Of a stretch of DNA of 64,000 nt, positions 4,191-55,435 are shown in pieces. The stretch comes from Octopus vulgaris (taxonomy: Eukaryota), in assembly GCA_951406725.2 (NCBI GenBank), contig OX597819.1, forward strand, positions 76,322,001 through 76,386,000. Direction: 5' to 3'. A program made the position numbers and the translations under genes. The notes under the pieces are model-generated. The model searched no databases. It saw only the letters and a list, made by a program, of their open reading frames with translations, and was not told where the DNA came from. Each line of letters opens with the position of its first letter. Within the stretch, counting starts at the first letter, position 1.

Positions 4191-4652
4191 CTTGTTGATT
4201 TTGAAATTTCAATGACTAGTTTTTTCTTCTCGCTAGACACCTGGTAGCAAAAACATTTTCTAAATTTTCTAAATTTTTTTGCTACCCTGGAATTAATTAA
4301 TAATGATATAATGACTTCTGGCTAATTTTGAAAGAAAATCGGCATTTTTCGTACCTACTGCCGAAAAAACCGCGCTCGCGCGGTGGATTTTGAAATTTTA
4401 TAACATGTAAACACGAGGTATGTTCTGTATCACCTCGTCTTTATATGTTAATCTTGGCTTTCCTGCTGATGAGAGCTTCACCTAGCAATTTATTTTATTT
4501 GTGAAGATAGCTTGAAACCATGGTACAGGAAATAGATGGTAAATGTTTTTAGTTTTTATATTCCCTTTGGAAATTACCCCTAATAGAGGTTTAGAGTTTA
4601 ACTACTCCTTCTAGCGGGTCAACTATCCTGTTATGGCCATCTCTTATATGTT
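4191..4652 (+). mobile_element. Solo ~460-bp diverged monomer of the HHR-containing ~500-bp repeat family
   Basis: Collinear similarity to the array unit (ttgttgat, ctggtRgcaaaa..ttttgcYaccc, ttctggYtaatt, ctgccga, tttgaaa, HHR, ggtaaatgttttt, cctRttatggcc); flanked by microsatellites. Confidence 0.75.
4459..4532 (+). ncRNA. Type I hammerhead ribozyme
   Basis: tttcctg CTGATGA gagct..agctt GAAA ccatgg TA caggaaa: 7-bp stem I, 5-bp stem II, palindromic stem III, GUA site (cleavage after 4525). Confidence 0.9.
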
Positions 4653-4741
4653 TAAATGTACACTGTATTTACACACACACACATATATATATATACATAT
4701 GTATATATATATATATACATATATGCATGTATGAATGTATG

Positions 4742-13146: not shown

Positions 13147-13147
<1 letters not shown>

Positions 13148-13678
13148 CTACAAAATTAGAGAATGGAGAAACATACTTAAATCAGTAAAACATCAACTAT
13201 CCGATGATACTCAATCCATACTTTAATACACCATTACATATGAGTAAAGGCAATATATAAAATGAAATGAGATATACAGTAATAGTAAAAGTAAAAAGAT
13301 AAAGAGATATAAGTAAAATTTCAAATATAATATGCAAATAAACCAAAACTGACAGCTGTTTCGGCAGTGAGGACAGTCATACCTCATTTAACCTATAAGC
13401 CATAAAGGCAGGTCTGCCTTTATGGCTTATAGGTTAAATGAGGTATGACTGTCCTCACTGCCGAAACAGCTGTCAGTTTTGGTTTATTTGCATATTATAT
13501 TTGAAATTTTACTTATATCTCTTTATCTTTTTACTTTTACTATTACTGTATATCTCATTTCATTTTATATATTGCCTTTACTCATATGTAATGGTGTATT
13601 AAAGTATGGATTGAGTATCATCGGATAGTTGATGTTTTACTGATTTAAGTATGTTTCTCCATTCTCTAATTTTGTAGT
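13147..13678. repeat. Perfect 532-bp palindrome (265-bp arms, 2-nt GT spacer at 13412-13413)
   Basis: Arms read as exact reverse complements; each holds a hammerhead half-core GAAACAGCTGTC (13463-13474 on +); right arm continues uniquely to ~13850, then (TA)n. Confidence 0.9.
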
Positions 13679-13873
13679 ATTAATTTACGGTAATATTATT
13701 ACCTTTACCCATTTAATACAATAGATGAACTGATTGCTTGACAATTTTTAACATCTATGTATTATTTTTGTTGGGTACCTATCTAGCAGTATATTGGATA
13801 TATATTATCCCATGGTGGGTTGAATTTTCAACCCCTATCTCATTTTAACCTATATATATATATATATATTTTT

Positions 13874-14278
13874 ATAATTAATCAATATAGGGTGGCAAAA
13901 AATTTTGTAGAATTCTTTTGCCACCAGCGGCCTAGTAGGAAAAAATTAAAATAGTCAAAGACCATTTTTAAGTTCAACATCAACAATAAAGGAACGGCCA
14001 TAATAGGCCATTCACCCACTAGAAATAACAGCCAAAGCTTCAACCGCAAATAAAAGTTAATTCAGTAAACCAGGAGAAAATTAAAAAAAACATTTACCCT
14101 GTAATTTCTTATACGATATACCGTTTCATCTGCTGATTAATGGTAAACTAACCTGATTAAATTAAATCAAGCCAATCTTCCACAGGCCCTCAGATTCTTC
14201 AGTAAGAAATAGCCCAAGACGGAACAGATATTTTCACGAGGCATTTCCGACGTTGCCAAGTTAATATCTGACCTAAAA
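13874..14278 (-). mobile_element. Inverted partial (405-bp) copy of the array unit, head-to-head with the array
   Basis: Near-exact reverse complement of the unit from ttttaggtcaga to gattaattat; abuts (TA)n on its outer side. Confidence 0.95.
14104..14210 (-). ncRNA. Type I hammerhead ribozyme (inverted copy)
   Basis: Reverse complement of the array HHR. Confidence 0.88.
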
Positions 14279-14582
14279 AGGTGAATGGCCTATTATGGCC
14301 GTTCCTTTATTGTTGATGTTGAACTTAAAAATGGTCTTTGACTATTTTAATTTTTTCCTACTAGGCCGCTGGTGGCAAAAGAATTCTACAAAATTTTTTT
14401 TTTTGCCACCCTATATTGATTAATTATGAATTTTCTGGTTAATTCCGTAATGGAATCGACGGCTTATATTTATTTGCTGCCGATAAATTTGGCGCGAGTG
14501 CGACGATTTGAAAATTTTAGGTCAGATATTAACTTGGCAACGTCGGAAATGCCTCGTGAAAATATCTGTTCCGTCTTGGGCT

Positions 14583-14689
14583 ATTTCTTACTGAAGAATC
14601 TGAGGGCCTGTGGAAGATTGGCTTGATTTAATTTAATCAGGTTAGTTTACCATTAATCAGCAGATGAAACGGTATATCGTATAAGAAAT
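14583..14689 (+). ncRNA. Type I hammerhead ribozyme, unit 1
   Basis: atttctta CTGAAGA atctg [56-nt structured loop] cagat GAAA cggtatatcg TA taagaaat; 8-bp stem I; cleavage predicted after A14681. Confidence 0.92.
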
Positions 14690-15078
14690 TACAGGGTAAA
14701 TGTTTTTTAAATTTTCTCCTGGTTTACTGAATTAACTTTTATTTGCGGTTGAAGCTTTGGCTGTTATTTCTAGTGGGTGAATGGCCTATTATGGCCGTTC
14801 CTTTATTGTTGATGTTGAACTTAAAAATGGTCTTTGACTATTTTAATTTTTTCCTACTAGGCCGCTGGTGGCAAAAGAATTCTACAAAATTTTTTTTTTT
14901 GCCACCCTATATTGATTAATTATGAATTTTCTGGTTAATTCCGTAATGGAATCGACGGCTTATATTTATTTGCTGCCGATAAATTTGGCGCGAGTGCGAC
15001 GATTTGAAAATTTTAGGTCAGATATTAACTTGGCAACGTCGGAAATGCCTCGTGAAAATATCTGTTCCGTCTTGGGCT

Positions 15079-15185
15079 ATTTCTTACTGAAGAATCTGAG
15101 GGCCTGTGGAAGATTGGCTTGATTTAATTTAATCAGGTTAGTTTACCATTAATCAGCAGATGAAACGGTATATCGTATAAGAAAT
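15079..15185 (+). ncRNA. Type I hammerhead ribozyme, unit 2
   Basis: Same sequence as the unit 1 HHR. Confidence 0.9.
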
Positions 15186-15572
15186 TACAGGGTAAATGTT
15201 TTTTAAATTTTCTCCTGGTTTACTGAATTAACTTTTATTTGCGGTTGAAGCTTTGGCTGTTATTTCTAGTGGGTGAATGGCCTATTATGGCCGTTCCTTT
15301 ATTGTTGATGTTGAACTTAAAAATGGTCTTTGACTATTTTAATTTTTTCCTACTAGGCCGCTGGTGGCAAAAGAATTCTACAAAATTTTTTTTTGCCACC
15401 CTATATTGATTAATTATGAATTTTCTGGTTAATTCCGTAATGGAATCGACGGCTTATATTTATTTGCTGCCGATAAATTTGGCGCGAGTGCGACGATTTG
15501 AAAATTTTAGGTCAGATATTAACTTGGCAACGTCGGAAATGCCTCGTGAAAATATCTGTTCCGTCTTGGGCT

Positions 15573-15679
15573 ATTTCTTACTGAAGAATCTGAGGGCCTG
15601 TGGAAGATTGGCTTGATTTAATTTAATCAGGTTAGTTTACCATTAATCAGCAGATGAAACGGTATATCGTATAAGAAAT
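15573..15679 (+). ncRNA. Type I hammerhead ribozyme, unit 3
   Basis: Same sequence as the unit 1 HHR. Confidence 0.9.
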
Positions 15680-16070
15680 TACAGGGTAAATGTTTTTTAA
15701 ATTTTCTCCTGGTTTACTGAATTAACTTTTATTTGCGGTTGAAGCTTTGGCTGTTATTTCTAGTGGGTGAATGGCCTATTATGGCCGTTCCTTTATTGTT
15801 GATGTTGAACTTAAAAATGGTCTTTGACTATTTTAATTTTTTCCTACTAGGCCGCTGGTGGCAAAAGAATTCTACAAAATTTTTTTTTTTTTGCCACCCT
15901 ATATTGATTAATTATGAATTTTCTGGTTAATTCCGTAATGGAATCGACGGCTTATATTTATTTGCTGCCGATAAATTTGGCGCGAGTGCGACGATTTGAA
16001 AATTTTAGGTCAGATATTAACTTGGCAACGTCAGAAATGCCTCGTGAAAATATCTGTTCCGTCTTGGGCT

Positions 16071-16177
16071 ATTTCTTACTGAAGAATCTGAGGGCCTGTG
16101 GAAGATTGGCTTGATTTAATTTAATCAGGTTAGTTTACCATTAATCAGCAGATGAAACGGTATATCGTATAAGAAAT
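16071..16177 (+). ncRNA. Type I hammerhead ribozyme, unit 4
   Basis: Same sequence as the unit 1 HHR. Confidence 0.9.
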
Positions 16178-16569
16178 TACAGGGTAAATGTTTTTTAAAT
16201 TTTCTCCTGGTTTACTGAATTAACTTTTATTTGCGGTTGAAGCTTTGGCTGTTATTTCTAGTGGGTGAATGGCCTATTATGGCCGTTCCTTTATTGTTGA
16301 TGTTGAACTTAAAAATGGTCTTTGACTATTTTAATTTTTTCCTACTAGGCCGCTGGTGGCAAAAGAATTCTACAAAATTTTTTTTTTTTTTGCCACCCTA
16401 TATTGATTAATTATGAATTTTCTGGTTAATTCCGTAATGGAATCGACGGCTTATATTTATTTGCTGCCGTTAAATTTGGCGCGAGTGCGACGATTTGAAA
16501 ATTTTAGGTCAGATATTAACTTGGCAACGTCGGAAATGCCTCGTGAAAATATCTGTTCCGTCTTGGGCT

Positions 16570-16676
16570 ATTTCTTACTGAAGAATCTGAGGGCCTGTGG
16601 AAGATTGGCTTGATTTAATTTAATCAGGTTAGTTTACCATTAATCAGCAGATGAAACGGTATATCGTATAAGAAAT
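16570..16676 (+). ncRNA. Type I hammerhead ribozyme, unit 5
   Basis: Same sequence as the unit 1 HHR. Confidence 0.9.
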
Positions 16677-17075
16677 TACAGGGTAAATGTTTTTTAAATT
16701 CTCTCCTGGTTTACTGAATTAACTTTTATTTGCGGTTGAAGCTTTGGCTGTTATTTCTAGTGGGTGAATGGCCTATTATGGCCGTTCCTTTATTGTTGAT
16801 GTTGAACTTAAAAATGGTCTTTGACTATTTTAATTTTTTCCTACTAGGCCGCTGGTGGCAAAAGAATTCTACAAATTTTTTTTTTTTTTTTTTTTTTGCC
16901 ACCCTATATTGATTAATTATGAATTTTCTGGTTAATTCCGTAATGGAATCGACGGCTTATATTTATTTGCTGCCGATAAATTTGGCGCGAGTGCGACGAT
17001 TTGAAAGTTTTAGGTCAGATATTAACTTGGCAACGTCGGAAATGCCTCGTGAAAATATCTGTTCCGTCTTGGGCT

Positions 17076-17182
17076 ATTTCTTACTGAAGAATCTGAGGGC
17101 CTGTGGAAGATTGGCTTGATTTAATTTAATCAGGTTAGTTTACCATTAATCAGCAGATGAAACGGTATATCGTATAAGAAAT
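17076..17182 (+). ncRNA. Type I hammerhead ribozyme, unit 6
   Basis: Same sequence as the unit 1 HHR. Confidence 0.9.
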
Positions 17183-17573
17183 TACAGGGTAAATGTTTTT
17201 TAAATTTTCTCCTGGTTTACTGAATTAACGTTTATTTGCGGTTGAAGCTTTGGCTGTTATTTCTAGTGGGTGAATGGCCTATTATGGCCGTTCCTTTATT
17301 GTTGATGTTGAACTTAAAAATGGTCTTTGACTATTTTAATTTTTTCCTACTAGGCCGCTGGTGGCAAAAGAATTCTACAAATTTTTTTTTTTTTTGCCAC
17401 CCTATATTGATTAATTATGAATTTTCTGGTTAATTCCGTAATGGAATCGACGGCTTATATTTATTTGCTGCCGATAAATTTGGCGCGAGTGCGACGATTT
17501 GAAAATTTTAGGTCAGATATTAACTTGGCAACGTCGGAAATGCCTCGTGAAAATATCTGTTCCGTCTTGGGCT

Positions 17574-17680
17574 ATTTCTTACTGAAGAATCTGAGGGCCT
17601 GTGGAAGATTGGCTTGATTTAATTTAATCAGGTTAGTTTACCATTAATCAGCAGATGAAACGGTATATCGTATAAGAAAT
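17574..17680 (+). ncRNA. Type I hammerhead ribozyme, unit 7
   Basis: Same sequence as the unit 1 HHR. Confidence 0.9.
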
Positions 17681-18079
17681 TACAGGGTAAATGTTTTTAA
17701 ATTTTCTCCTGGTTTACTGAATTAACTTTTATTTGCGGTTGAAGCTTTGGCTGTTATTTCTAGTGGGTGAATGGCCTATTATGGCCGTTCCTTTATTGTT
17801 GATGTTGAACTTAAAAATGGTCTTTGACTATTTTAATTTTTTCCTACTAGGCCGCTTGTGGCAAAAGAATTCTACAAAATTTTTTTTTTTTTTTTTTTTT
17901 TGCCACCCTATATTGATTAATTATGAATTTTCTGGTTAATTCCGTAATGGAATCGACGGCTTATATTTATTTGCTGCCGTTAAATTTGGCGCGAGTGCGA
18001 CGATTTGAAAATTTTAGGTCAGATATTAACTTGGCAACGTCGGAAATGCCTCGTGAAAATATCTGTTCCGTCTTGGGCT

Positions 18080-18186
18080 ATTTCTTACTGAAGAATCTGA
18101 GGGCCTGTGGAAGATTGGCTTGATTTAATTTAATCAGGTTAGTTTACCATTAATCAGCAGATGAAACGGTATATCGTATAAGAAAT
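18080..18186 (+). ncRNA. Type I hammerhead ribozyme, unit 8
   Basis: Same sequence as the unit 1 HHR. Confidence 0.9.
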
Positions 18187-18306
18187 TACAGGGTAAATGT
18201 TTTTTAAATTTTCTCCTGGTTTACTGAATTAACTTTTATTTGCGGTTGAAGCTTTGGCTGTTATTTCTAGTGGGTGAATGGCCTATTATGGCCGTTCCTT
18301 TATTGT

Positions 18307-18310
<4 letters not shown>

Positions 18311-22763: not shown

Positions 22764-22887
<124 letters not shown>

Positions 22888-22967
22888 GGACACAAGTGTG
22901 TATTTAGTCAGGATAGTACAGAAGTATATAAACTTTCCCGAAGTGAATGTGTTACCTTTAAACATAA

Positions 22968-23228
22968 TTAAAGGATAAAAATCATTAAAATTAATGAATT
23001 ATAGTCAGTCTGCTTGCCCGCATTCAGCCTGTATATATGTGAAGTGAAGATATGAAGTGGCTGGACGTATTTGACGTCTATTTTCAGCATATAGGCATGG
23101 TAGCTCCCGTGCCTTTGAGTATAATTGCATCCTATACATATATCTCTATATATGTATTTTACCTTAAAAGTTTTTTTATATGCTAGGCACTGTTAAAATT
23201 CATAAATTTTAATGATTTTATCCTTTAA
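22968..23228. repeat. 260-bp segment with ~33-bp terminal inverted repeats, internally related to the 34220-34856 unit
   Basis: ttaaaggataaaaatcattaaaattaatgaatt / aattcataaattttaatgatttttatcctttaa; shares gacgtctat..agcataYaggc and tatgctaggc(c)actg with the minus strand of the 34.2-34.8 kb unit. Confidence 0.55.
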
Positions 23229-24350
23229 ACATGTTTATACATACATACATACATACATACATGAATACATACACATACACATATGCGCGCACATAGACAC
23301 ACATACACACAACACACACACATACACACACACATATACATATGATATTCGCAGTCGTATTTCAAAATGCCAACTATAACACTCAATTGATTTTAAACAT
23401 ATTTAAAGTATAGAGCGTTAGCATATTAGTAGAAATAGATTATCAAAATCAATATTAGACAATGACTAACATATTTTAAGTATTTTTATAACAGTCTTGT
23501 TTTCATCCAACTTGAGTCGATAAAACAATGTGCCTTCAAGTACCTTAGACTCTATGTAACTGACAATAAGAAATGCTTTCAGCACGCAAGGGATGCATTT
23601 CGACTGCTTGTAACAAGTGACACAACATGTGGCATCCAAATATTTCCAAATCAACAAAGCCTGCCTTCTTCTGGATGTATGTAGAGTGTTCTTATCTAAG
23701 ACCTCAAAATGTTGAAAAGCAAATTTGGCCTCAATGGAATAAGAACTCAGATTGTAAAGCTAGTAGAAATGCGAGAATTCCATAGGGGGTGCTAAGGACT
23801 CTGCCAGCGCACCACCTTAGTATTAAAAAAAATAATAAAAATGAAGATGGTGCTAATTTGATTAACATAACATCCTTCCCGAAAGATTCGCAATAGTGTA
23901 TTTATATTAAACACCAATAGCAATTCAATATTTCTCGTAACTGTTGGTTCATATGAGAGTTTACTAAGCAAGGCCCCTCATAAAATACGTTCTTGACGTA
24001 TTTTAAAATGTAATGATGAAAGAATAATTAGAAAAATAGTTTATATTTAGTTTATTTTTATCAGTATAGGAAAATAGAAATGTTTGAAGATAAATTAACT
24101 CACTTACTGAATATTTTCTACATTTCAACTTTTTTCAGCTATTACGAGAGACAATTCATGTCTTATTGTGAACTTGTCAGCAAACTGTAGTAATGATATG
24201 CATAACTCAATGTAGTAGTGATACGTATAACTCGGCAAATGTAAAATCTTTTACGCTTATTTGTATAGGTAATACTCTGTACAAATAAAATATTTGGTTA
24301 TTCACATACATATTTTTTCGGATCTTTTCCCTTTGAACGGCAGATCGAGA

Positions 24351-33050: not shown

Positions 33051-33980
33051 ATTAGTGGGTTGCTATTGCTACACTACTACAGTAACTAACAATACAACCA
33101 CCAAAACCCCCACCCTCACCCCAACTACTACTACTACTGCTACTACTACTACTTTTATTCTTTTTAGGAAGTACACATTATGTAATACGTACCCTGAGAT
33201 TAAAAAAAAAATTGTATGTCTGTTTGATCAGGGCTTTCCTAAGACTAAGCGAGGAACGAAGTCAGGTTTATCTGCTGAATTTGATGGAGTCTATTATTTT
33301 AGTCTTCAATATGGCCATATCCGCTGGATAAATATCATTTCACTTCCCTCAGAAAACGATCCAAAGAGCCTCTATGTGAGCGTTCAACCTGCTAGAAATA
33401 GAATCGAAATCTTCATTAAAAATCACATCATACCGTTTTAAATAAGTAAAATAAATCCACATTATATAATTAATTTCTGATTTTGGCGCAAAACTAAGTA
33501 ATTTTCAGGGATGGGGAAATCCGATTATATCGATGTCAGTGATCGACTCGGAAAGGATGAAGTGTCCGCAGAACATAATGCACCAGAAGAAATGTCGCTA
33601 AGCATTTTGCTCGGAGTGGTAACAATTCTAAAAGCGCATACTCTTAAAAAATACATTTAACAGACCTCTAGGTTATTGTCCCAGTACGCTTGCACTACGC
33701 TTCTTTGCTGGCAAGTCGTGTTATAAAATCTTTAATACTTTCATTCATTGTTATGTTATTTTACTTTATATAGTTCTTAGATACATCTAGTGCCATATAT
33801 GCTTGTGTTTCTACTATTTCAGCTATCTTAATCTCACCTACCAGATCCTTTGCTGCTCAGGATGTGGTTTAACTTTGTACATCCATAGCATCAAGCCTGT
33901 CTTTTAACCGAGATATTTCTAGTTAGTACAAAGTCAGTCTTAATCCTGCAGATTAATATAGATTCTGTTATAACAATATA

Positions 33981-34135
<155 letters not shown>

Positions 34136-34140
34136 ATATT

Positions 34141-34183
<43 letters not shown>

Positions 34184-34219
34184 GTATGTATTTATGTATG
34201 TATGTATGTGTATGTATGT

Positions 34220-34856
34220 AAAATTTAGAGGATTGACCACTATAAGTGTACAGCCTGTATGCTAGATATAGACGTCAAAATCGCCATTTTTCACGAGGAA
34301 TGTGTTCTCAAGAAAAAATTCAGCAAAAACCCAGTGTGAAAATAACAAGACAAATGAAAATATACGAAATAAAAAACGATTACCTATGTACTAATTAGTT
34401 TCGCTTGTAAATATTTACGTATATGGGTACGTAAACATCAGCAAGATCATCAGCATAGTCTGTCGTTTACGAAACATAATTTCCAGAACTAGATACAGGG
34501 CGCTCAACCGAAATCCAGCATGTATAAAGTTCCACAAATTATATTTAAGTGTATCTTTCAAATGCCTTCAACTTGGCGCGCTGGGATAGGAAATTACTCT
34601 GCAGTTAATAAACTACAGCAGTCAGTTTACCGGCTAGAGAACATTTTTTAAATTTAAAATGAATTAAGGGAAGAAATTGATATTAATCATTTAAAACCAG
34701 TGGCCTAGCATATTTAAAAAATCCGAAGATTATAAATTTTTTACATACAAAATTTAGATGATTGACCACAAAAAGTGGACAGCCTGTATGCTAGATATAG
34801 ACGTCAAAATCGCCATTTCCACGAAAAATGTGTTCTCAAGAAAAAATTCAGCAAAA
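34220..34856 (-). mobile_element. ~1.2 copies of a 529-bp HHR-containing tandem unit
   Basis: ~108-bp direct repeats at 34220-34328 and 34749-34856 with an HHR between them; 3' end abuts a long TA/TATG tract. Confidence 0.75.
34384..34458 (-). ncRNA. Type I hammerhead ribozyme
   Basis: Minus strand: ctatg CTGATGA tcttg..tgtttacgta/tacgtaaata..caagc GAAA ctaattag TA catag; first stem II pair mismatched. Confidence 0.8.
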
Positions 34857-36841
34857 TTTCATTTCAGCTGATTCTAGCACTGGCTCAACGGGGTGTTCAT
34901 ACCGTTTTCTTGAGTAGTTCAGCTTGTGTTTCTAGTACAGTCGAGGGAATACAGCAAATCTCCTGTATCATTCTTTTCTTTTGAACTACTTCTACAATAT
35001 GACTAAATATTCCCCATCTCAATCCACAGATTTTACATAATGATGGCTCTAAGGTTTCCTTGATAATATATTTCGCATAATTAGTTCTTAGGGATTACTC
35101 TCGTGCTGTACATAATGCTTTATTATCGAATTTAATGTTTGATCTTCACATCCATTCGTGAAGTGCTTGCTTTTCTGATCCACTATGTATGAACTATATG
35201 AATTAACCATGCATCACTTTATTCATTCATTTTTCTGTCTTCTCAAAACTTTTCCTTCTTATAATCATGTTTTCAATGGAAATTTCAGTTTGTAAAATGC
35301 TACATTGTTTGACTTTTGTTAGCCAGGACTTCTCATTTATTTATGTACCCACCAAAAGAAATACCAAGATCAAGTAATAACGAGTTGACAACCGATGGAG
35401 TTTAGTCAATTGCGTGGGAAGAACAGTCTCTGTACCTCCGAAATATGGTTTCTAAATAAATAAATAATTGAAAGAAAAAATAATTAAAGGAATAAAAATA
35501 ATTTCCGATAGTTGGGTAACCTTCAATTTTCTGATGAAAAATCACGACAATGAGCTATAAAATAACAATGTCAATAAGATTAGAAACAACGCTGGAGGTA
35601 TTCGTCCGGTATATATTATATTGTGTAGCAGGAGGACTCTGTCCTTACCCTGTAGCTACAAGTAATCAGAGTTGAGTATTAACCGCAAGAGCGTCAGACA
35701 AAAAATATGGTATAAGTTCGGCTCTTTCTATTATCAAATCCATTCGACTTTAACTTTGACTTTCACCCTTCTACAATTGATAAACAGAGAACCAATTAAA
35801 TAATTCAGACGGTGGTACCGCTCGATGTAGGCTACTCAAAACTGCTAACCTTGTGTATAGATTTAAAACAACTATTATTATTTACCAGGGTGACTCGTTA
35901 GAACATTGAGAAATGCTTTGCGGTGTATGTTTTATGTTCTGAGATCAAATACCACCGAGGTCAACTTTGACTTTTATTCTTTCGGGGTGAATAAAATAAT
36001 TACCAGCCAAGAATAAAGATCGATGCTATCTACTAACTATTCGCTCTGAAACTGGCAAAATTTAAAACAAATAATTTAATTGGGTGAATCGTTAAAGCGT
36101 TGAAAAATGCTTGGCAATATGTGTTTTACGCAGAGTTGTGTTTTACTGCCTAGTAAAAGCTGCTTTTCATTCCTCCGTGGTTCATGTAGAATCCGAGTTG
36201 ACGAAAATACATGTTTTATAGGGAGAACGCAGCAAAAGGTCTTTTCTATGTTAGTGTGTATACGGACGTGTGAAATATCAATGTGCACAATATAATAATC
36301 ACTGATTACCGGATTTTTATTTGCCACAGATACACGCACTACTGTGTATGTGTGTGTATGTATTTATACGTACATGCATACACGCATGCATGTATGTATG
36401 AGTCATTTTCTCCCTGTTTGCATGAATGTTGGTGTGCTAGAGCAAAATCACACTAAAACACTTTGTTCCTACATTCTATATCAACATTCGAAAATGTCAT
36501 TATTAGTTACATTATACAATAAGTTCAATATGAAATGAGTCAACAATATTCTGTTTATAAATCTATAGACATCTAAACACTGCGCATACATTCATACATA
36601 CAAACATATGTATATAAGTATATATAGATATATGTATTTATGTGCACACGCACACACACACACACACTCTCTCTCTCTCTCTCTCTGACTACACTTTGAC
36701 AATTTTTGATATCTTGGCATCTGAAGCAGCTGGTGATGCGATTGTTTGATCACAAGAACCGGCTATTGTAAGCGAAAATAAATATTGAAAAAAGCGCATT
36801 TGGCCAAGTTTGGAATACGACATTTTAACATAATAGCAACG

Positions 36842-37769: not shown

Positions 37770-37814
<45 letters not shown>

Positions 37815-37823
37815 TAACAAAAA

Positions 37824-37861
37824 CTGTCTGATGAACGGCAACGAGAAACTCAGAGTAACAG
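37824..37861 (+). ncRNA. Minimal type I hammerhead ribozyme (slightly degenerate)
   Basis: ctgt CTGATGA acg gcaa cga GAAA ctcagag TA acag; a degenerate paralog lies on the minus strand at ~22303-22343. Confidence 0.65.
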
Positions 37862-37963
37862 AATTTGTTGAATTTCTGCTGCTTTAAATAAAGCATATTA
37901 CTCTACCACTGCTATTTGTGTACTCTTTTTTTCCACCTTGTTTCACATTTATGTGTTTACTCC

Positions 37964-38024
<61 letters not shown>

Positions 38025-49402: not shown

Positions 49403-49567
49403 CTAGCTAAACAACAGCAGCAAACACGGTCTCTCAAAGATGTTTCAATCCATCCATACACACACATATACATACATATATATGTATATATATATAGAAA
49501 TTCGGGGTGAGTACTTGATAATTATAAGCACCTGTGTATACCGTTTGGTGGTGTAGGTGGTGGAGTA

Positions 49568-51167
49568 AATTGATCAAAATAAAAATAAAAACATGAGGCG
49601 AAGGATTCAGCGGTACATATGTTTCGGGCCTTTATTAGACAGATTTATAACAAAGCATAATGTATGTCTGTGGCCTTCTTCAGCCGCGCACAACAGCTTC
49701 CACAAGGACATGTGTTACATCAAAAATTCTTGGTTGGGGATGCAAATCCTCTCGTTCACGTACGACATAATGCGGCAGCAGCATAGAATTGAAGCGTCCA
49801 TCTCTTTCTTCTCTCAATGTAGAATGAGGAAACTTGGATGTTGAGGTAATGTAAATAAATAAATACGTATATAGAGGTGAAGATGGAGGGGCGAGAGTTC
49901 GGGACGAGGGATAAAAAATATATATAAAAGATGTACGTATAGAATAATATAAAAATGTAGAGGATAAAGATATAAAGAGTTGTAATGAGATGTAAAGGGG
50001 GTATAAAGAAATATAAAGAAATATAAATAAATGTAAAGGCATAAGGTTGTAAAGTAAAAATAGAAATGGAAATAATAGTAAAAGAAGTAAAAGAACCTGA
50101 TAAAAACATGATAAAAGTGTAAAAGAATGTAAAGATAAGGGATGTATAGAGGTCGCGGACCAAGCATGGTGGTCAGGAGATTGATAAAACTTAGTTGTAG
50201 AACTGTCAGTAAATTAACAGTTTCGTCGTAAATCAGAGCTGATGAGAATTTAATCTGGTTCCTTGAATTAAATGGACTTCCAGTACATACATATCATCAT
50301 GGATACATACACCCACATACACGTGTACATACACGTCTCCAAGCCTATAAGCATACACACGCACTCGCGTGTAAACACGTACATAAACACACACGCACCC
50401 ACACGCACGCGCGCACACACACATACATACAACAGAATATCCGCATATATAGACGGACATTACGCGCGTACACGCTCACATGTATATACGCGCGCCCCTC
50501 ACTACATACACACACGTATATGCCCACGCCCCTAGGTCTAGGTATAAGATATTAAAGGATGTGTATAAGAACGTATGTAAAGAATCCCGTACTCATGTTA
50601 ATACGCGCACGCACACACGGCTGTGTGTCCGTATGTGCGTGCACATATACACTCATACACACACACAGAGACACACGCGCACATGGGTATAGCCATAAGA
50701 TATCGAAGTATGCATGTACATATACGCGCGTGCATATGTATGCATGCGCATACACACGTACGCGGACGCTCGCATACTCAAAAGGCGGATCCATAGGTAA
50801 GTAAATAAACATATATAGAGGTGTAAAGCGATAAATTAGGGGTAAGAATGAGGGTAAGGGTAAAGATTAGAAATAAAAAAATACAGTATAAACTAAGAAA
50901 TACAATGTAATAGTTAGAAATGAAATATAAGAATTATAAGGGTTATAAGAGTTAAGGTAAGGGATGAAAATGAAAATGAGAGTAAATGGAAGTAGAATAA
51001 AAGTAAAAATAAAATTAAAAATAAAAATAAATGGAAGTAGGATAAAAGTAAAAATAAAAATAAAAATAAAAATAAAAATAAAATAAAATAAAATAAAATA
51101 AAAAAAAAATAAGGTAAAAATATAATTTTGTAAAGTTTAACATGAGATGGAGGTGGCACACATATAT
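49568..51167 (-). repeat. 3' pseudo-LTR arm (1600 bp), sense to the ORF
   Basis: Reverse complement of 53768-55364 with only a few substitutions and a 3-nt poly-A length difference. Confidence 0.95.
49610..49687 (-). ncRNA. Type I hammerhead ribozyme in the 3' pLTR
   Basis: gcgg CTGAAGA aggcc..ggccc GAAA catatg TA ccgc. Confidence 0.85.
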
Positions 51168-51330
51168 ATATATATGTATATGTACACATACGTACACGTA
51201 TGTGCACATACACACGCACACACACACACACACACACACATACACACGCACATATAGGAAAGCGGGATGTGCTGGAGCCGACAGGTTGCACCGGGTGGGA
51301 GGAAATAGCATGGGGGAGTTGGTATAAGAC

Positions 51331-53793
51331 CTAAGCATTATAGTATTTGAAAGTATTAATAAGTTTATGTATACAGGATGGTTTGAACTCTGACCTTTTG
51401 TTAATAAGATTGTGTTTGTCTTTGAATTTCAAGATGTTCAGGAGTTCTACACAGCATAGTTGGCATCCTGCTCTATTATTTAAATAAGGTGCAGCTGATC
51501 CGATGATGGACCATCTGAGTTTGAAGCCTATGCATTTGTCTTTTAATTCCCAAATTCTTTTAGAGAGGGAGGTGCTGTTAGCCTTATGTCTATGTCTCAG
51601 CGAGGACCGGTGGTTGTAGTATCTGGATTTCCAGGAGGTTGAGCAACCAATATAGGTGAGTGTGTTAAACTGAGTACTCACCTCACATGAGTATATTACG
51701 TTTTTCGCCCTGCATGCGCCCTGCAGCGGGCACTCTGATGCACATCTGCAGTTGCATTGCATTGCATTATTCGGTCGTGTGCTGCTAATCCCAGGCGGAG
51801 GTGTTGCAATACGAGTGGGGGCGTTGGTATCCTCCTGGTTGTTGATGGGTGTAGTATTTCCTCTGTTGTGTTGGCGGGTGTTATTACTAACTGCTTGGGT
51901 AGTATGGCTGCCAGTCTGGTTATATTGCCTACTGTCTAGATGAGGGGGGTTCTGTTGGTCGCTATGGTTTGCTCTTGATCTAGCTGTTCTAATATTAATA
52001 TAGTTATGTTTAGCTAAGAGGCAGCTCATGTTGGGCAGGGTAGAGTAGGAAATCCTAATAGTTTTGTTGGAGAAGATACTTCTATATTTGTGGGTGGGTG
52101 GGAAGTTGTTGGAAATTATAGAGAATATTCTCTTACATAACTTACCCCTAACTGCTAAGTTGAAAGGTATGTTGAACCATATATATTTGCGTAATCTACT
52201 ATTATCCCTTCTATTTCTCCTAATAGGATCTATATTGCTCTCGTCGGGAGGGTTACTATTGTGTGCTGTTCTATTAGTTCGCCTATTTCCTATACGTTGT
52301 TTGGAGTTTGAATTAGACTTATCGGTAGTGTGAGTTGAGTGCTGAGTTCGATTATAATTGGGAGTCTTATGGTCGACGGACGCTCCCGGTTGGTCTACAT
52401 ATGATATTCTCTGGTTATACCCGGCACTATAGAGAGCTTGGTTGTAGTGTTGTGCATGATTATTGAAAATTTCTCTATTAGAGGATAGTTTTGTCAGTCT
52501 GTCTGAGATGGCTTGGACTGTGGTGCTAATTATACAGGGTGGATGGTTGGAAGAGGTATGGATGTATTTGGTAGTTTCTTCTGATTTCCTATACGGGTAG
52601 TGAAGGTGCTTATTCAAATCTAACGTAACATCTAAGAAGTTAACTATTTTAGTATTGGTCATAAATTCTAGTTTAAGATTGAAGGATTTGAAAAAAAGCC
52701 TGATCTTTTTCCTAATTCTTTCTAGTTTACTCCTATTGTTGGTGGGGTATATGAAGAGAGCGTCGTCTCTGTATAGACCCCCCTGAAGATCCGGTACCTC
52801 GGAGAAAAGCTTCTTGAGCAGGTAGGCCCCGACCAAGTCAGTCACCTGAGCTGAATCGCTCGAGCCCATAGCCACATCGAAATTGTCGGGGGTATCGGAT
52901 CTGGTCCAGAGTCTACCGTCGAATTCTATTATGGTTTTTCTAGCTAATAGAATTATGTCAATTTTTTCTCTGTCTATGAGTGAAAGGTTGCGGGCAAAAA
53001 TAAGGGATTTGTTAAGTAAGATGGGGGATATACTGGCGTAGTAGCTAGCTATGTCGAATTGGATGAATGAGTAGTCGGGCCTATTGGTGATAGTGTTAAA
53101 CCATTCTAGCACATCGCTGGTATTAATCCATAGTTGGAGTGGGATGTGGGGTTTGATGTGTGGGATCACCTTGTCCAGGATGGTCTTGCTAAGTCTGCCG
53201 ATATCCGATTTAGTCGGACAGATTAATCGTACTCCTACACTATCTGGGAAGTCTTTCTTATGGTCTTTAATAGTAATTTTGGGTACTTGCGGTTTAATAG
53301 GTTCTGTTCTGTCCAGGAGGTCTAATTTGCTCATAACTTCCTTGATTTTGTAATTAATTTCCTTAAGGTTATCCGTAGAAGTAGTTTTATACTTTTTGCT
53401 AAGTTCCCTCATGATGAGCGATTTGTAGGTTTGGTAGTCTAGCCTATACCAGTTCCCAGTCTTGTCGGCGGGTATGATAAGACTATCATCGTTCCTGAGT
53501 GAATGCAGGAAATCTTTAAGGCTCCTTAAGTGGGTGTTGGAAATGGTCTTATGTTTACTAATGTTGATGTTGGTAATGAGGTCGATTAAGTGTTTTTCAA
53601 AATTTTCCAGTGCGTAGTTAGAGGGTGGGTTTCTTCTGCTTTTAAATATCTTCCTGTGTGCTATTTCTTCTTGGTTAGAGTTGGGGTTGCTTTTCTCCGG
53701 GTTATCGAAATGGTAGGCCGCCCACCTAATTCTTCTAATAAAGTCTGTGGTCCGGTGGATGAGAGTCATATATGTGTGCCACCTCCATCTCAT
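51331..53793 (-). CDS. Penelope-like reverse transcriptase with C-terminal GIY-YIG endonuclease (820 aa)
   Basis: IPADKTGNWY; RT motifs QFDIASYYASI, AMGS, LYRDD, VNFLDVTL; thumb YIHTSSNHPP; CNCRCASECPLQGAC; VIY..YIG; RYYNH; CQLC..E; NKRSE. Confidence 0.95.
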   Translation of the reverse strand: MRWRWHTYMTLIHRTTDFIRRIRWAAYHFDNPEKSNPNSNQEEIAHRKIFKSRRNPPSNYALENFEKHLIDLITNINISKHKTISNTHLRSLKDFLHSLRNDDSLIIPADKTGNWYRLDYQTYKSLIMRELSKKYKTTSTDNLKEINYKIKEVMSKLDLLDRTEPIKPQVPKITIKDHKKDFPDSVGVRLICPTKSDIGRLSKTILDKVIPHIKPHIPLQLWINTSDVLEWFNTITNRPDYSFIQFDIASYYASISPILLNKSLIFARNLSLIDREKIDIILLARKTIIEFDGRLWTRSDTPDNFDVAMGSSDSAQVTDLVGAYLLKKLFSEVPDLQGGLYRDDALFIYPTNNRSKLERIRKKIRLFFKSFNLKLEFMTNTKIVNFLDVTLDLNKHLHYPYRKSEETTKYIHTSSNHPPCIISTTVQAISDRLTKLSSNREIFNNHAQHYNQALYSAGYNQRISYVDQPGASVDHKTPNYNRTQHSTHTTDKSNSNSKQRIGNRRTNRTAHNSNPPDESNIDPIRRNRRDNSRLRKYIWFNIPFNLAVRGKLCKRIFSIISNNFPPTHKYRSIFSNKTIRISYSTLPNMSCLLAKHNYINIRTARSRANHSDQQNPPHLDSRQYNQTGSHTTQAVSNNTRQHNRGNTTPINNQEDTNAPTRIATPPPGISSTRPNNAMQCNCRCASECPLQGACRAKNVIYSCEVSTQFNTLTYIGCSTSWKSRYYNHRSSLRHRHKANSTSLSKRIWELKDKCIGFKLRWSIIGSAAPYLNNRAGCQLCCVELLNILKFKDKHNLINKRSEFKPSCIHKLINTFKYYNA

Positions 53794-55361
53794 GTTAAAC
53801 TTTACAAAATTATATTTTTACCTTATTTTTTTATTTTATTTTATTTTATTTTATTTTTATTTTTATTTTTATTTTTATTTTTACTTTTATCCTACTTCCA
53901 TTTATTTTTATTTTTAATTTTATTTTTACTTTTATTCTACTTCCATTTACTCTCATTTTCATTTTCATCCCTTACCTTAACTCTTATAACCCTTATAATT
54001 CTTATATTTCATTTCTAACTATTACATTGTATTTCTTAGTTTATACTGTATTTTTTTATTTCTAATCTTTACCCTTACCCTCATTCTTACCCCTAATTTA
54101 TCGCTTTACACCTCTATATATGTTTATTTACTTACCTATGGATCCGCCTTTTGAGTATGCGAGCGTCCGCGTACGTGTGTATGCGCATGCATACATATGC
54201 ACGCGCGTATATGTACATGCATACTTCGATATCTTATGGCTATACCCATGTGCGTGTGTGTCTCTGTGTGTGTGTATGAGTGTATATGTGCACGCACATA
54301 CGGACACACAGCCGTGTGTGCGTGCGCGTATTAACATGAGTACGGGATTCTTTACATACGTTCTTATACACATCCTTTAATATCTTATACCTAGACCTAG
54401 GGGCGTGGGCATATACGTGTGTGTATGTAGTGAGGGGCGCGCGTATATACATGTGAGCGTGTACGCGCGTAATGTCCGTCTATATATGCGGATATTCTGT
54501 TGTATGTATGTGTGTGTGCGCGCGTGCGTGTGGGTGCGTGTGTGTTTATGTACGTGTTTACACGCGAGTGCGTATGTATGCTTATAGGCTTGGAGACGTG
54601 TATGTATACGTGTATGTGGGTGTATGTATCCATGATGATATGTATGTACTGGAAGTCCATTTAATTCAAGGAACCAGATTAAATTCTCATCAGCTCTGAT
54701 TTACGACGAAACTGTTAATTTACTGACAGTTCTACAACTAAGTTTTATCAATCTCCTGACCACCATGCTTGGTCCGCGACCTCTATACATCCCTTATCTT
54801 TACATTCTTTTACACTTTTATCATGTTTTTATCAGGTTCTTTTACTTCTTTTACTATTATTTCCATTTCTATTTTTACTTTACAACCTTATGCCTTTACA
54901 TTTATTTATATTTCTTTATATTTCTTTATACCCCCTTTACATCTCATTACAACTCTTTATATCTTTATCCTCTACATTTTTATATTATTCTATACGTACA
55001 TTTTTTATATATATTTTTTATCCCTCGTCCCGAACTCTCGCCCCTCCATCTTCACCTCTATATACGTATTTATTTATTTACATTACCTCAACATCCAAGT
55101 TTCCTCATTCTACATTGAGAGAAGAAAGAGATGGACGCTTCAATTCTATGCTGCTGCCGCATTATGTCGTACGTGAACGAGAGGATTTGCATCCCCAACC
55201 AAGAATTTTTGATGTAACACATGTCCTTGTGGAAGCTGTTGTGCGCGGCTGAAGAAGGCCACAGACATACATTATGCTTTGTTATAAATCTGTCTAATAA
55301 AGGCCCGAAACATATGTACCGCTGAATCCTTCGCCTCATGTTTTTATTTTTATTTTGATCA

Positions 55362-55364
<3 letters not shown>
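53768..55364 (+). repeat. 5' inverted pseudo-LTR arm (1597 bp)
   Basis: Reverse complement of 49568-51167; joins the ORF at an ATATAT microhomology. Confidence 0.95.
55245..55322 (+). ncRNA. Type I hammerhead ribozyme in the inverted pLTR
   Basis: gcgg CTGAAGA(55249-55255) aggcc..ggccc GAAA(55307-55310) catatg TA ccgc; cleavage predicted after A55318. Confidence 0.85.

Positions 55365-55435
<71 letters not shown>

Follow-up and report, generated by a model that had tools for sequence, protein, structure and literature searches.

Animal non-LTR retrozymes are described as non-coding, low-GC units, typically ~300 nt long, that carry a type I hammerhead with a weak palindromic helix III and are repeated head to tail as dimers to multimers; for these elements, circles and cleavage have been demonstrated (Cervera and de la Pena 2020, PMC7229834). 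Vertebrate retrozymes, as presented in the available text of a preprint (Li, Clavereau, Pollet, bioRxiv 10.64898/2026.07.22.740005), are non-autonomous PLE derivatives with homology to pLTRs, co-occur with coding PLEs and include many copies of monomer size. In both sources, as far as their accessible text goes, PLEs are put forward as the mobiliser of animal retrozymes by way of proposal only. PLE ends are described with a partial tandem, an inverted 5'-truncated copy and a tail, and PLEs of the Hydra clade, which encode a reverse transcriptase (RT) and an endonuclease, insert at (TA)n and carry canonical hammerheads (Craig et al. 2021, PMC8557442). The same work describes non-autonomous Chlamys elements, for example MRC1, as non-coding and PLE-dependent, with pLTRs and head-to-tail copies, and reports Naiad and Chlamys as mostly without canonical hammerheads. 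In vitro, the anole element Poseidon PAc starts reverse transcription internally at two sites that define its tail, extends both strands, uses uncut RNA and has AT-rich targets (Frangieh et al. 2024, PMC11167929).

By what enzyme animal retrozymes are copied, and with or without a circle, is the question on which the family described here bears. It offers a strict rule for the arm ends, a clade of candidate partners whose intact ORFs occur in the same genome, and a single chimeric locus. In the entries listed by our literature searches, which covered mainly open-access papers, cephalopod retrozymes are not described. The main text of an O. vulgaris repeat annotation (PMC13282606) mentions neither ribozymes nor retrozymes, and a review (PMC7761336) does not mention cephalopods.

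We analysed a 64,000-nt stretch of Octopus vulgaris contig OX597819.1, here called the window, and in it an insertion whose parts are as follows (E1 and E2 are fixed 3' end sites of the family; the array and the monomer are two other repeats of the window).

33976 to 34219, strand not assigned: (TA)n/(TATG)n tract adjoining the RNA 3' end, the presumed target
34220 to 34856, minus strand: entire insertion, a single arm of ~1.2 units and 637 nt, with the RNA 3' end at 34220 and the 5' break at 34856
34220 to 34748, minus strand: single 529-bp unit without an ORF, 6.4% off the family majority
34220 to 34328, minus strand: terminal repeat, RNA 3' copy, ending at the fixed site E1
34373 to 34468, minus strand: type I hammerhead motif, read from the sequence, whose stem I is extended
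34556 to 34581, minus strand: GCGCG...ATTTGAAA motif pair, common to the array and monomer families
34646 to 34748, minus strand: 'tail' segment of ~105 nt between both fixed 3' end sites
34697 to 34708, minus strand: CTAG..CTGG motif, common to the array family at equal distance from E1
34749 to 34856, minus strand: 5' copy (in the RNA sense) of the terminal repeat, broken off at an A-run

The earlier note on this DNA had described direct repeats 529 bp apart that enclose a minus-strand type I hammerhead with a palindromic stem III and a GUA site. Re-measured, the repeats (34220-34328 and 34749-34856) agree at 92.7% over 109 columns with an offset of 529 (E 1e-40), and all of the named hammerhead parts can be read between them. 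The RNA 3' end abuts the TA tract, as that note had said: the TA/TATG tract called by TRF at 33976-34207 continues to 34219, and the insertion starts at 34220. E2 is internal in this copy, mapping near 34646-34650. Neither an inverted second arm nor a target-site duplication was seen on the 34749-34856 side, and a poly(A) tail is absent from the window copy.

The window copy is an aged copy of an abundant ~530-nt non-coding repeat with a predicted hammerhead. For the family, the reading that we favour, at a probability of roughly 0.8, is a non-coding 530-nt repeat, present in many copies and with a type I hammerhead predicted, whose retrotransposition was likely carried out in trans by a PLE; among PLEs, the Hydra clade is the most likely source. 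In the mechanism we propose, the PLE enzyme would nick (TA)n DNA, and reverse transcription would begin at an internal site of the RNA, E1 for one DNA end and E2 for the other. Copying would then pass the uncut ribozyme and exceed one unit, giving rise to the terminal redundancy; at the window copy, the E1 arm of 637 nt is the only one seen. Carrying a single ribozyme, this copy could release no monomer and is probably inert; it also falls short of the rule for 'active' retrozymes given by Li et al., namely two consecutive intact hammerheads. The copy itself is old and ordinary; what gives the finding value are the E1+E2 rule, the read-through of the cut and the chimera with a Hydra arm described below, through which partner and template become testable in vitro.

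The family combines a type I hammerhead motif, a short, non-coding, low-GC unit and PLE-type insertion, and would best be filed as a new family of a known kind, the animal non-LTR retrozymes, with hammerhead cleavage and circles as predictions. It resembles the retrozymes of PMC7229834 in its non-coding low-GC unit, its type I hammerhead, its weak palindromic helix III and its head-to-tail repetition. It differs from them in unit length (530 nt against ~300), in its dispersed arms, mostly 0.3-1.9 units rather than dimers to multimers, and in a long stem II insert with a U.U base; circles and cleavage, demonstrated there, are predictions here. As in the vertebrate retrozymes, coding PLEs co-occur and many copies are of monomer size, but homology to a pLTR, reported for those elements, was not found here among the sampled coding PLEs, and the available text of that preprint gives no account of fixed end sites or of insertions with two arms.

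To place the window copy in its family, we searched the 2.8-Gb, 227-contig assembly. A first look returned 3,144 candidates for the unit, and the 40 that were scored showed 85-90% identity. Loci were gathered with four probes (the whole element, an internal segment, the 991-nt arm and the 3' end); after 16 duplicates were dropped and 6 of 25 long-probe loci retained, 80 loci were kept, which are top hits rather than a random sample. The 36 full units among them lie 5.9% off their majority (6.4% for the window copy), the GC content is 31%, and the longest stop-free frames in a tandem reading are 48 and 80 aa. With divergence of ~6% and only short stop-free frames, the family is non-coding and aged. 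Contigs resembling it occur in three runs guessed to be RNA (two species labels), as contigs that lack ends, strand and level, and in two other runs the summed contig depth exceeds that of the flanks by a factor of hundreds to thousands, a ratio that is not a copy number.

A sister family with terminal redundancy is found at L288 2586-3311 (minus strand; z 19 against the window-copy family). It keeps stem I through changed pairs, has a different stem III palindrome and retains the U.U at the base of stem II. Further related fragments lie at L064, L119 and L149. Within the window, positions 22860-23260 hold a short insertion between TA tracts with a weak match to the end region of the unit (profile E 0.02), probably another sister family.

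The predicted hammerhead has its core at CUGAUGA (34453-34447) and GAAA (34402-34399) on the minus strand. Stem II is CUUG/CAAG with a long hairpin insert, stem III is palindromic (34390-34399), and stem I, CUAUG/CAUAG, continues past a 4x4 internal loop; with GUA as the site, cutting is predicted to fall between positions 34389 and 34388. At the base of stem II, where hammerheads have a G10.1-C11.1 pair termed highly conserved (PMC4209133), the window copy has U.C and 39 of the 46 copies parsed from the 80 loci have U.U, not G-C. Folding of the region gave a z of -3.3 to -3.5 over 200 shuffles, and the plus strand likewise gave -3.6. In the minimum-energy fold, the CUGAU core is paired with stem III, an inactive form in which the core is sequestered. 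The lack of G10.1-C11.1 and the buried core count against easy activity. The palindromic stem III would favour cutting as a dimer; in the account of Li et al., eight of nine Xenopus retrozyme dimers remained uncut in vitro. Rfam returned no hammerhead match for 34220-34860 at E<=10, nor was a hammerhead among the best 150 of 210 matches over the 64-kb window; the models probably missed the motif owing to the long stem II insert.

One possibility, doubtful but to be taken seriously, is that PLEs mobilise the unit as a non-autonomous repeat and that its hammerhead is weak or only a vestige, with copying from uncut tandem transcripts only and no circle stage; the family would then be a non-autonomous PLE and not a retrozyme in the strict sense. 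Besides the U.U base and the inactive minimum-energy fold, the 5' breaks agree with it: we looked for breaks piled at the cut site and found 2 of 89 within 8 nt, against ~2.8 expected if they were uniform. The anole PLE, moreover, is described as inserting in vitro with no need for ribozyme cleavage (PMC11167929). Conservation speaks the other way. Five core positions are invariant across the 36 full units, where the background is ~0.93, and the core pattern is intact in 30 of the 36; the fold is kept by changed pairs in the sister family and by a second stem III palindrome in 2 of the 46 parsed copies. Folded as a circle, the unit reached a z of -3.8 for the window copy and -7.1 for the majority sequence (40 shuffles each).

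The favoured reading, a repeat retrotransposed in trans by a PLE, draws on the anatomy of the insertions. The 80 loci contain 113 arms, of which 50 end at E1, 39 at E2, ~105 nt away, and 24 outside both windows of classification. The 5' breaks differ from locus to locus, whereas the 3' ends are fixed. A second arm is joined head-to-head in 33 loci, and in all 17 of these in which both ends could be classed, one arm ends at E1 and the other at E2 (chance ~6e-6); the other 16, with an end outside the class windows, were excluded from this count. In L081, the second arm ends ~26 nt beyond E1. TA-rich sequence flanks 27 of 31 E1 ends and 9 of 16 E2 ends in the first 50 loci. The family thus shows 5' truncation, partial tandems, inverted 5'-truncated copies, a tail and a (TA)n target, all PLE-type features of insertion. 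By analogy, its two-arm anatomy fits the two internal start sites and the extension of both strands described for the anole PLE (PMC11167929).

The same pattern of ends bears on an origin at the DNA level, by local duplication or satellite turnover, or through a LINE-driven SINE. Local tandem amplification after insertion has been proposed by Li et al. (bioRxiv 10.64898/2026.07.22.740005, in the text available), yet fixed 3' ends, variable 5' breaks and second arms that follow the E1+E2 rule largely exclude such an origin for this family, and the window copy has neither a poly(A) tail nor a target-site duplication. We consider this explanation highly improbable.

We then considered the template. 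Of the 71 arms that come near the predicted cut, which is 172 nt upstream of E1, 63 read through. Nearly half of all arms (48/113) are longer than one unit; none reaches two, and the longest is 991 nt. With this much read-through and so many arms longer than a unit, the usual template is something other than a linear monomer released by cutting. The copies that reach the end of the unit continue into the next one in 35 of 40 cases and stop in the other five. Repeats within a locus are more alike than repeats of other loci (0.072 against 0.121 over 23 loci; 0 of 10,000 permutations), and so are the arms of one locus (0.051 against 0.090 between loci, for 17 of 23 loci tried, with no equal in 10,000 permutations). 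The run-on and the within-locus likeness support what the earlier note had proposed, a greater-than-unit copy of a ~530-nt non-coding hammerhead unit taken from a tandem or circular template. Multimeric copies elsewhere, for which that note had suggested looking, did not appear: none of at least two units was present among the 40 candidates scored with the 991-nt probe, and two intact cores one unit apart occur in 1 of 56 loci.

Between the two templates, we lean slightly towards an uncut tandem transcript, with a ribozyme-made circle at a little under even odds. The likeness within loci fits one circle read repeatedly, or a homogeneous tandem transcript. The units of the array in the window differ from one another by 0-3 substitutions, which does not separate a circle from a tandem template.

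Could the unit simply belong to a coding PLE, as its pLTR or as an end truncated on the 5' side, with its terminal redundancy an ordinary partial tandem? The partial tandem, the inverted 5'-truncated copy and the tail are the anatomy of PLE ends as Craig et al. describe them, and the Xenopus retrozymes are described as homologous to pLTRs (bioRxiv 10.64898/2026.07.22.740005). We sampled coding PLEs. A GIY-YIG search gave 148 matches, and 3' flanks were taken from 20 of 30 fetched loci, which include several Neptune-type families; five Hydra-type families, one of them known only with a short, interrupted 3' end, were recognised by their RWK, DKT and CxCx5C motifs (Craig et al. 2021). The unit has no homology to the 20 flanks (best local score 38, and none with profiles) or to the five Hydra-type ends, and a short look-alike in one Hydra-type 3' UTR did not rise above shuffles (z -0.4). 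Six of the 80 loci contain a match to PLE proteins; only the one in L195 adjoins an arm, and it does so head-to-head rather than colinearly. No copies running into shared coding DNA were seen among the loci examined, and most copies that reach the unit end enter the next unit, as noted above. Identity with a pLTR, the alternative that the earlier note had itself named, thus fails for the sampled Neptune-type and Hydra-type families, in which both colinearity with an RT and GIY-YIG ORF and homology of the ends are absent, and we regard it as improbable for the unit. Chlamys elements such as MRC1 are similar to their partners at the 3' end (PMC8557442), a likeness not found between the unit and the sampled ends.

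Returning to mobilisation in trans, we compared the family with the PLEs of the same genome. Hydra-type PLEs resemble the unit in having two end sites and E1+E2 arms: in one coding family, 29 of 29 ends fall at two sites 101 nt apart and all six two-armed loci are E1+E2. Further Hydra-type families have 70-80 nt between their ends, so tail length is a weak marker and gives a hint only; the main Neptune-type family has two ends ~40 nt apart. For comparison, a tail of 30-40 nt is cited for Penelope in PMC11167929, where PAc is an autonomous element, against ~105 nt on the non-coding unit here. This genome has abundant Hydra-type ORFs that are intact, 717 and 727 aa long. Unlike the Hydra-clade PLEs, with their RT and endonuclease, the unit encodes nothing, and because it lacks sequence homology to the five Hydra-type ends, the case for the partner rests on anatomy and on one locus.

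That locus is L195 (1495-2569; G000:C18:67305951-67309050), in which an arm of the family is joined head-to-head, with no gap, to a 5'-truncated arm of a coding Hydra-type element. The Hydra-type arm is 84.5% identical to a young family, and its 3' end is lost in a microsatellite, which leaves its E1/E2 class unassignable. The junction has the geometry of one two-armed event that used two RNAs; a later Hydra insertion with a target deletion could give an identical picture. Overall, the partner is probably a Hydra PLE; a Neptune PLE is an unlikely choice, and any other type still less likely.

A more specific version of this reading, which we put forward tentatively and consider unlikely, is that the enzyme of a Hydra-clade PLE works as a dimer on a circular 530-nt RNA made by the ribozyme and copies it at both ends of one TA break, from E1 on one side and from E2 on the other. 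L195 would then be a captured event, with the retrozyme on one side and the enzyme's own RNA on the other. Were this true, a superfamily of animal retrozymes would have its mobiliser identified, although the two lack sequence homology.

Three further PLE loci were observed. At 49496-55366, the window contains a two-armed coding Hydra-type PLE with an 828-aa open frame (51331-53817, minus strand) and DKT, CxCx5C and CxxC motifs, for which a Pfam search gave no match; its 1,542-nt identical inverted arms each carry a type I hammerhead motif and have ends ~70 nt apart in TA. Positions 37801-37969 hold a fragment (93%) from the end of the young Hydra-type family with the 727-aa ORF, including a CUGAUGA box. 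Outside the window, L061 430-5672 is a young Neptune-type PLE with a 781-aa frame and an upstream frame, ends ~40 nt apart and a minimal hammerhead-like box, UUGAUAA.

Lastly, we compared the unit with the array and with the monomer at 4.2 kb, of whose class the earlier note had taken it to be another member. The motifs that it had named all occur in the unit and, measured from the fixed 3' end, follow in the order of the array unit, at distances of 44 and 44 nt (unit and array unit, respectively) for CTAG..CTGG, 175 and 170 for GCGCG, 274 and 298 for the core, and 378 and 367 for GGTAA; the monomer has a variant of the first motif. Ends in the array family are 110 nt apart, close to the ~105 nt of the window-copy family. 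In a global alignment with the register fixed by E1, the window copy reached a z of 5.6 against the array unit, exceeding the scores of 200 shuffles and of 532 segments drawn at random from the window, and only 2.4 against the monomer. Membership of the array's class is weakly supported: motif order and fixed-register alignment, which beats every shuffle (z 4.0-5.6), speak for it, and the profile comparison that the note had proposed is borderline: with nhmmer, the array unit found the window copy at E 0.17 and a joint array and monomer profile at E 0.073, the window-copy family profile found the array at E 0.27, and the monomer profile had no match to the window copy. As a single query, the window copy gave E 6e-4 with high composition bias. 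The array unit also weakly picked 11 of 36 real units and none of 36 shuffled ones (E<=10).

The kinship signal is confined to the portion 5' of the hammerhead, where the majority sequence gave a z of 3.7 against the array and 5.0 against the monomer, compared with 0.8 and 0.4 for the 3' part. The L288 sister family gave 3.9 against the array and 5.9 against the monomer family. One Hydra-type end reached 3.3 against the array unit, with 1 of 100 shuffles as high, and was not counted, 12 comparisons having been made. A distant common ancestry of the unit with the array and monomer is likely, though the profiles do not prove it.

The array family itself (13872-18310) is very young, with copies 100% identical on many contigs; it is multimeric, often two-armed, and ends in TA. 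The monomer family (4213-4670), which forms partial tandems too, is clearly homologous to it (profile E ~1e-26; z 13), and the unit is far more distant from both. At 13147-13678, immediately to the left of the array, a perfect 265-nt inverted repeat with a 2-nt spacer lies beside a TA tract.
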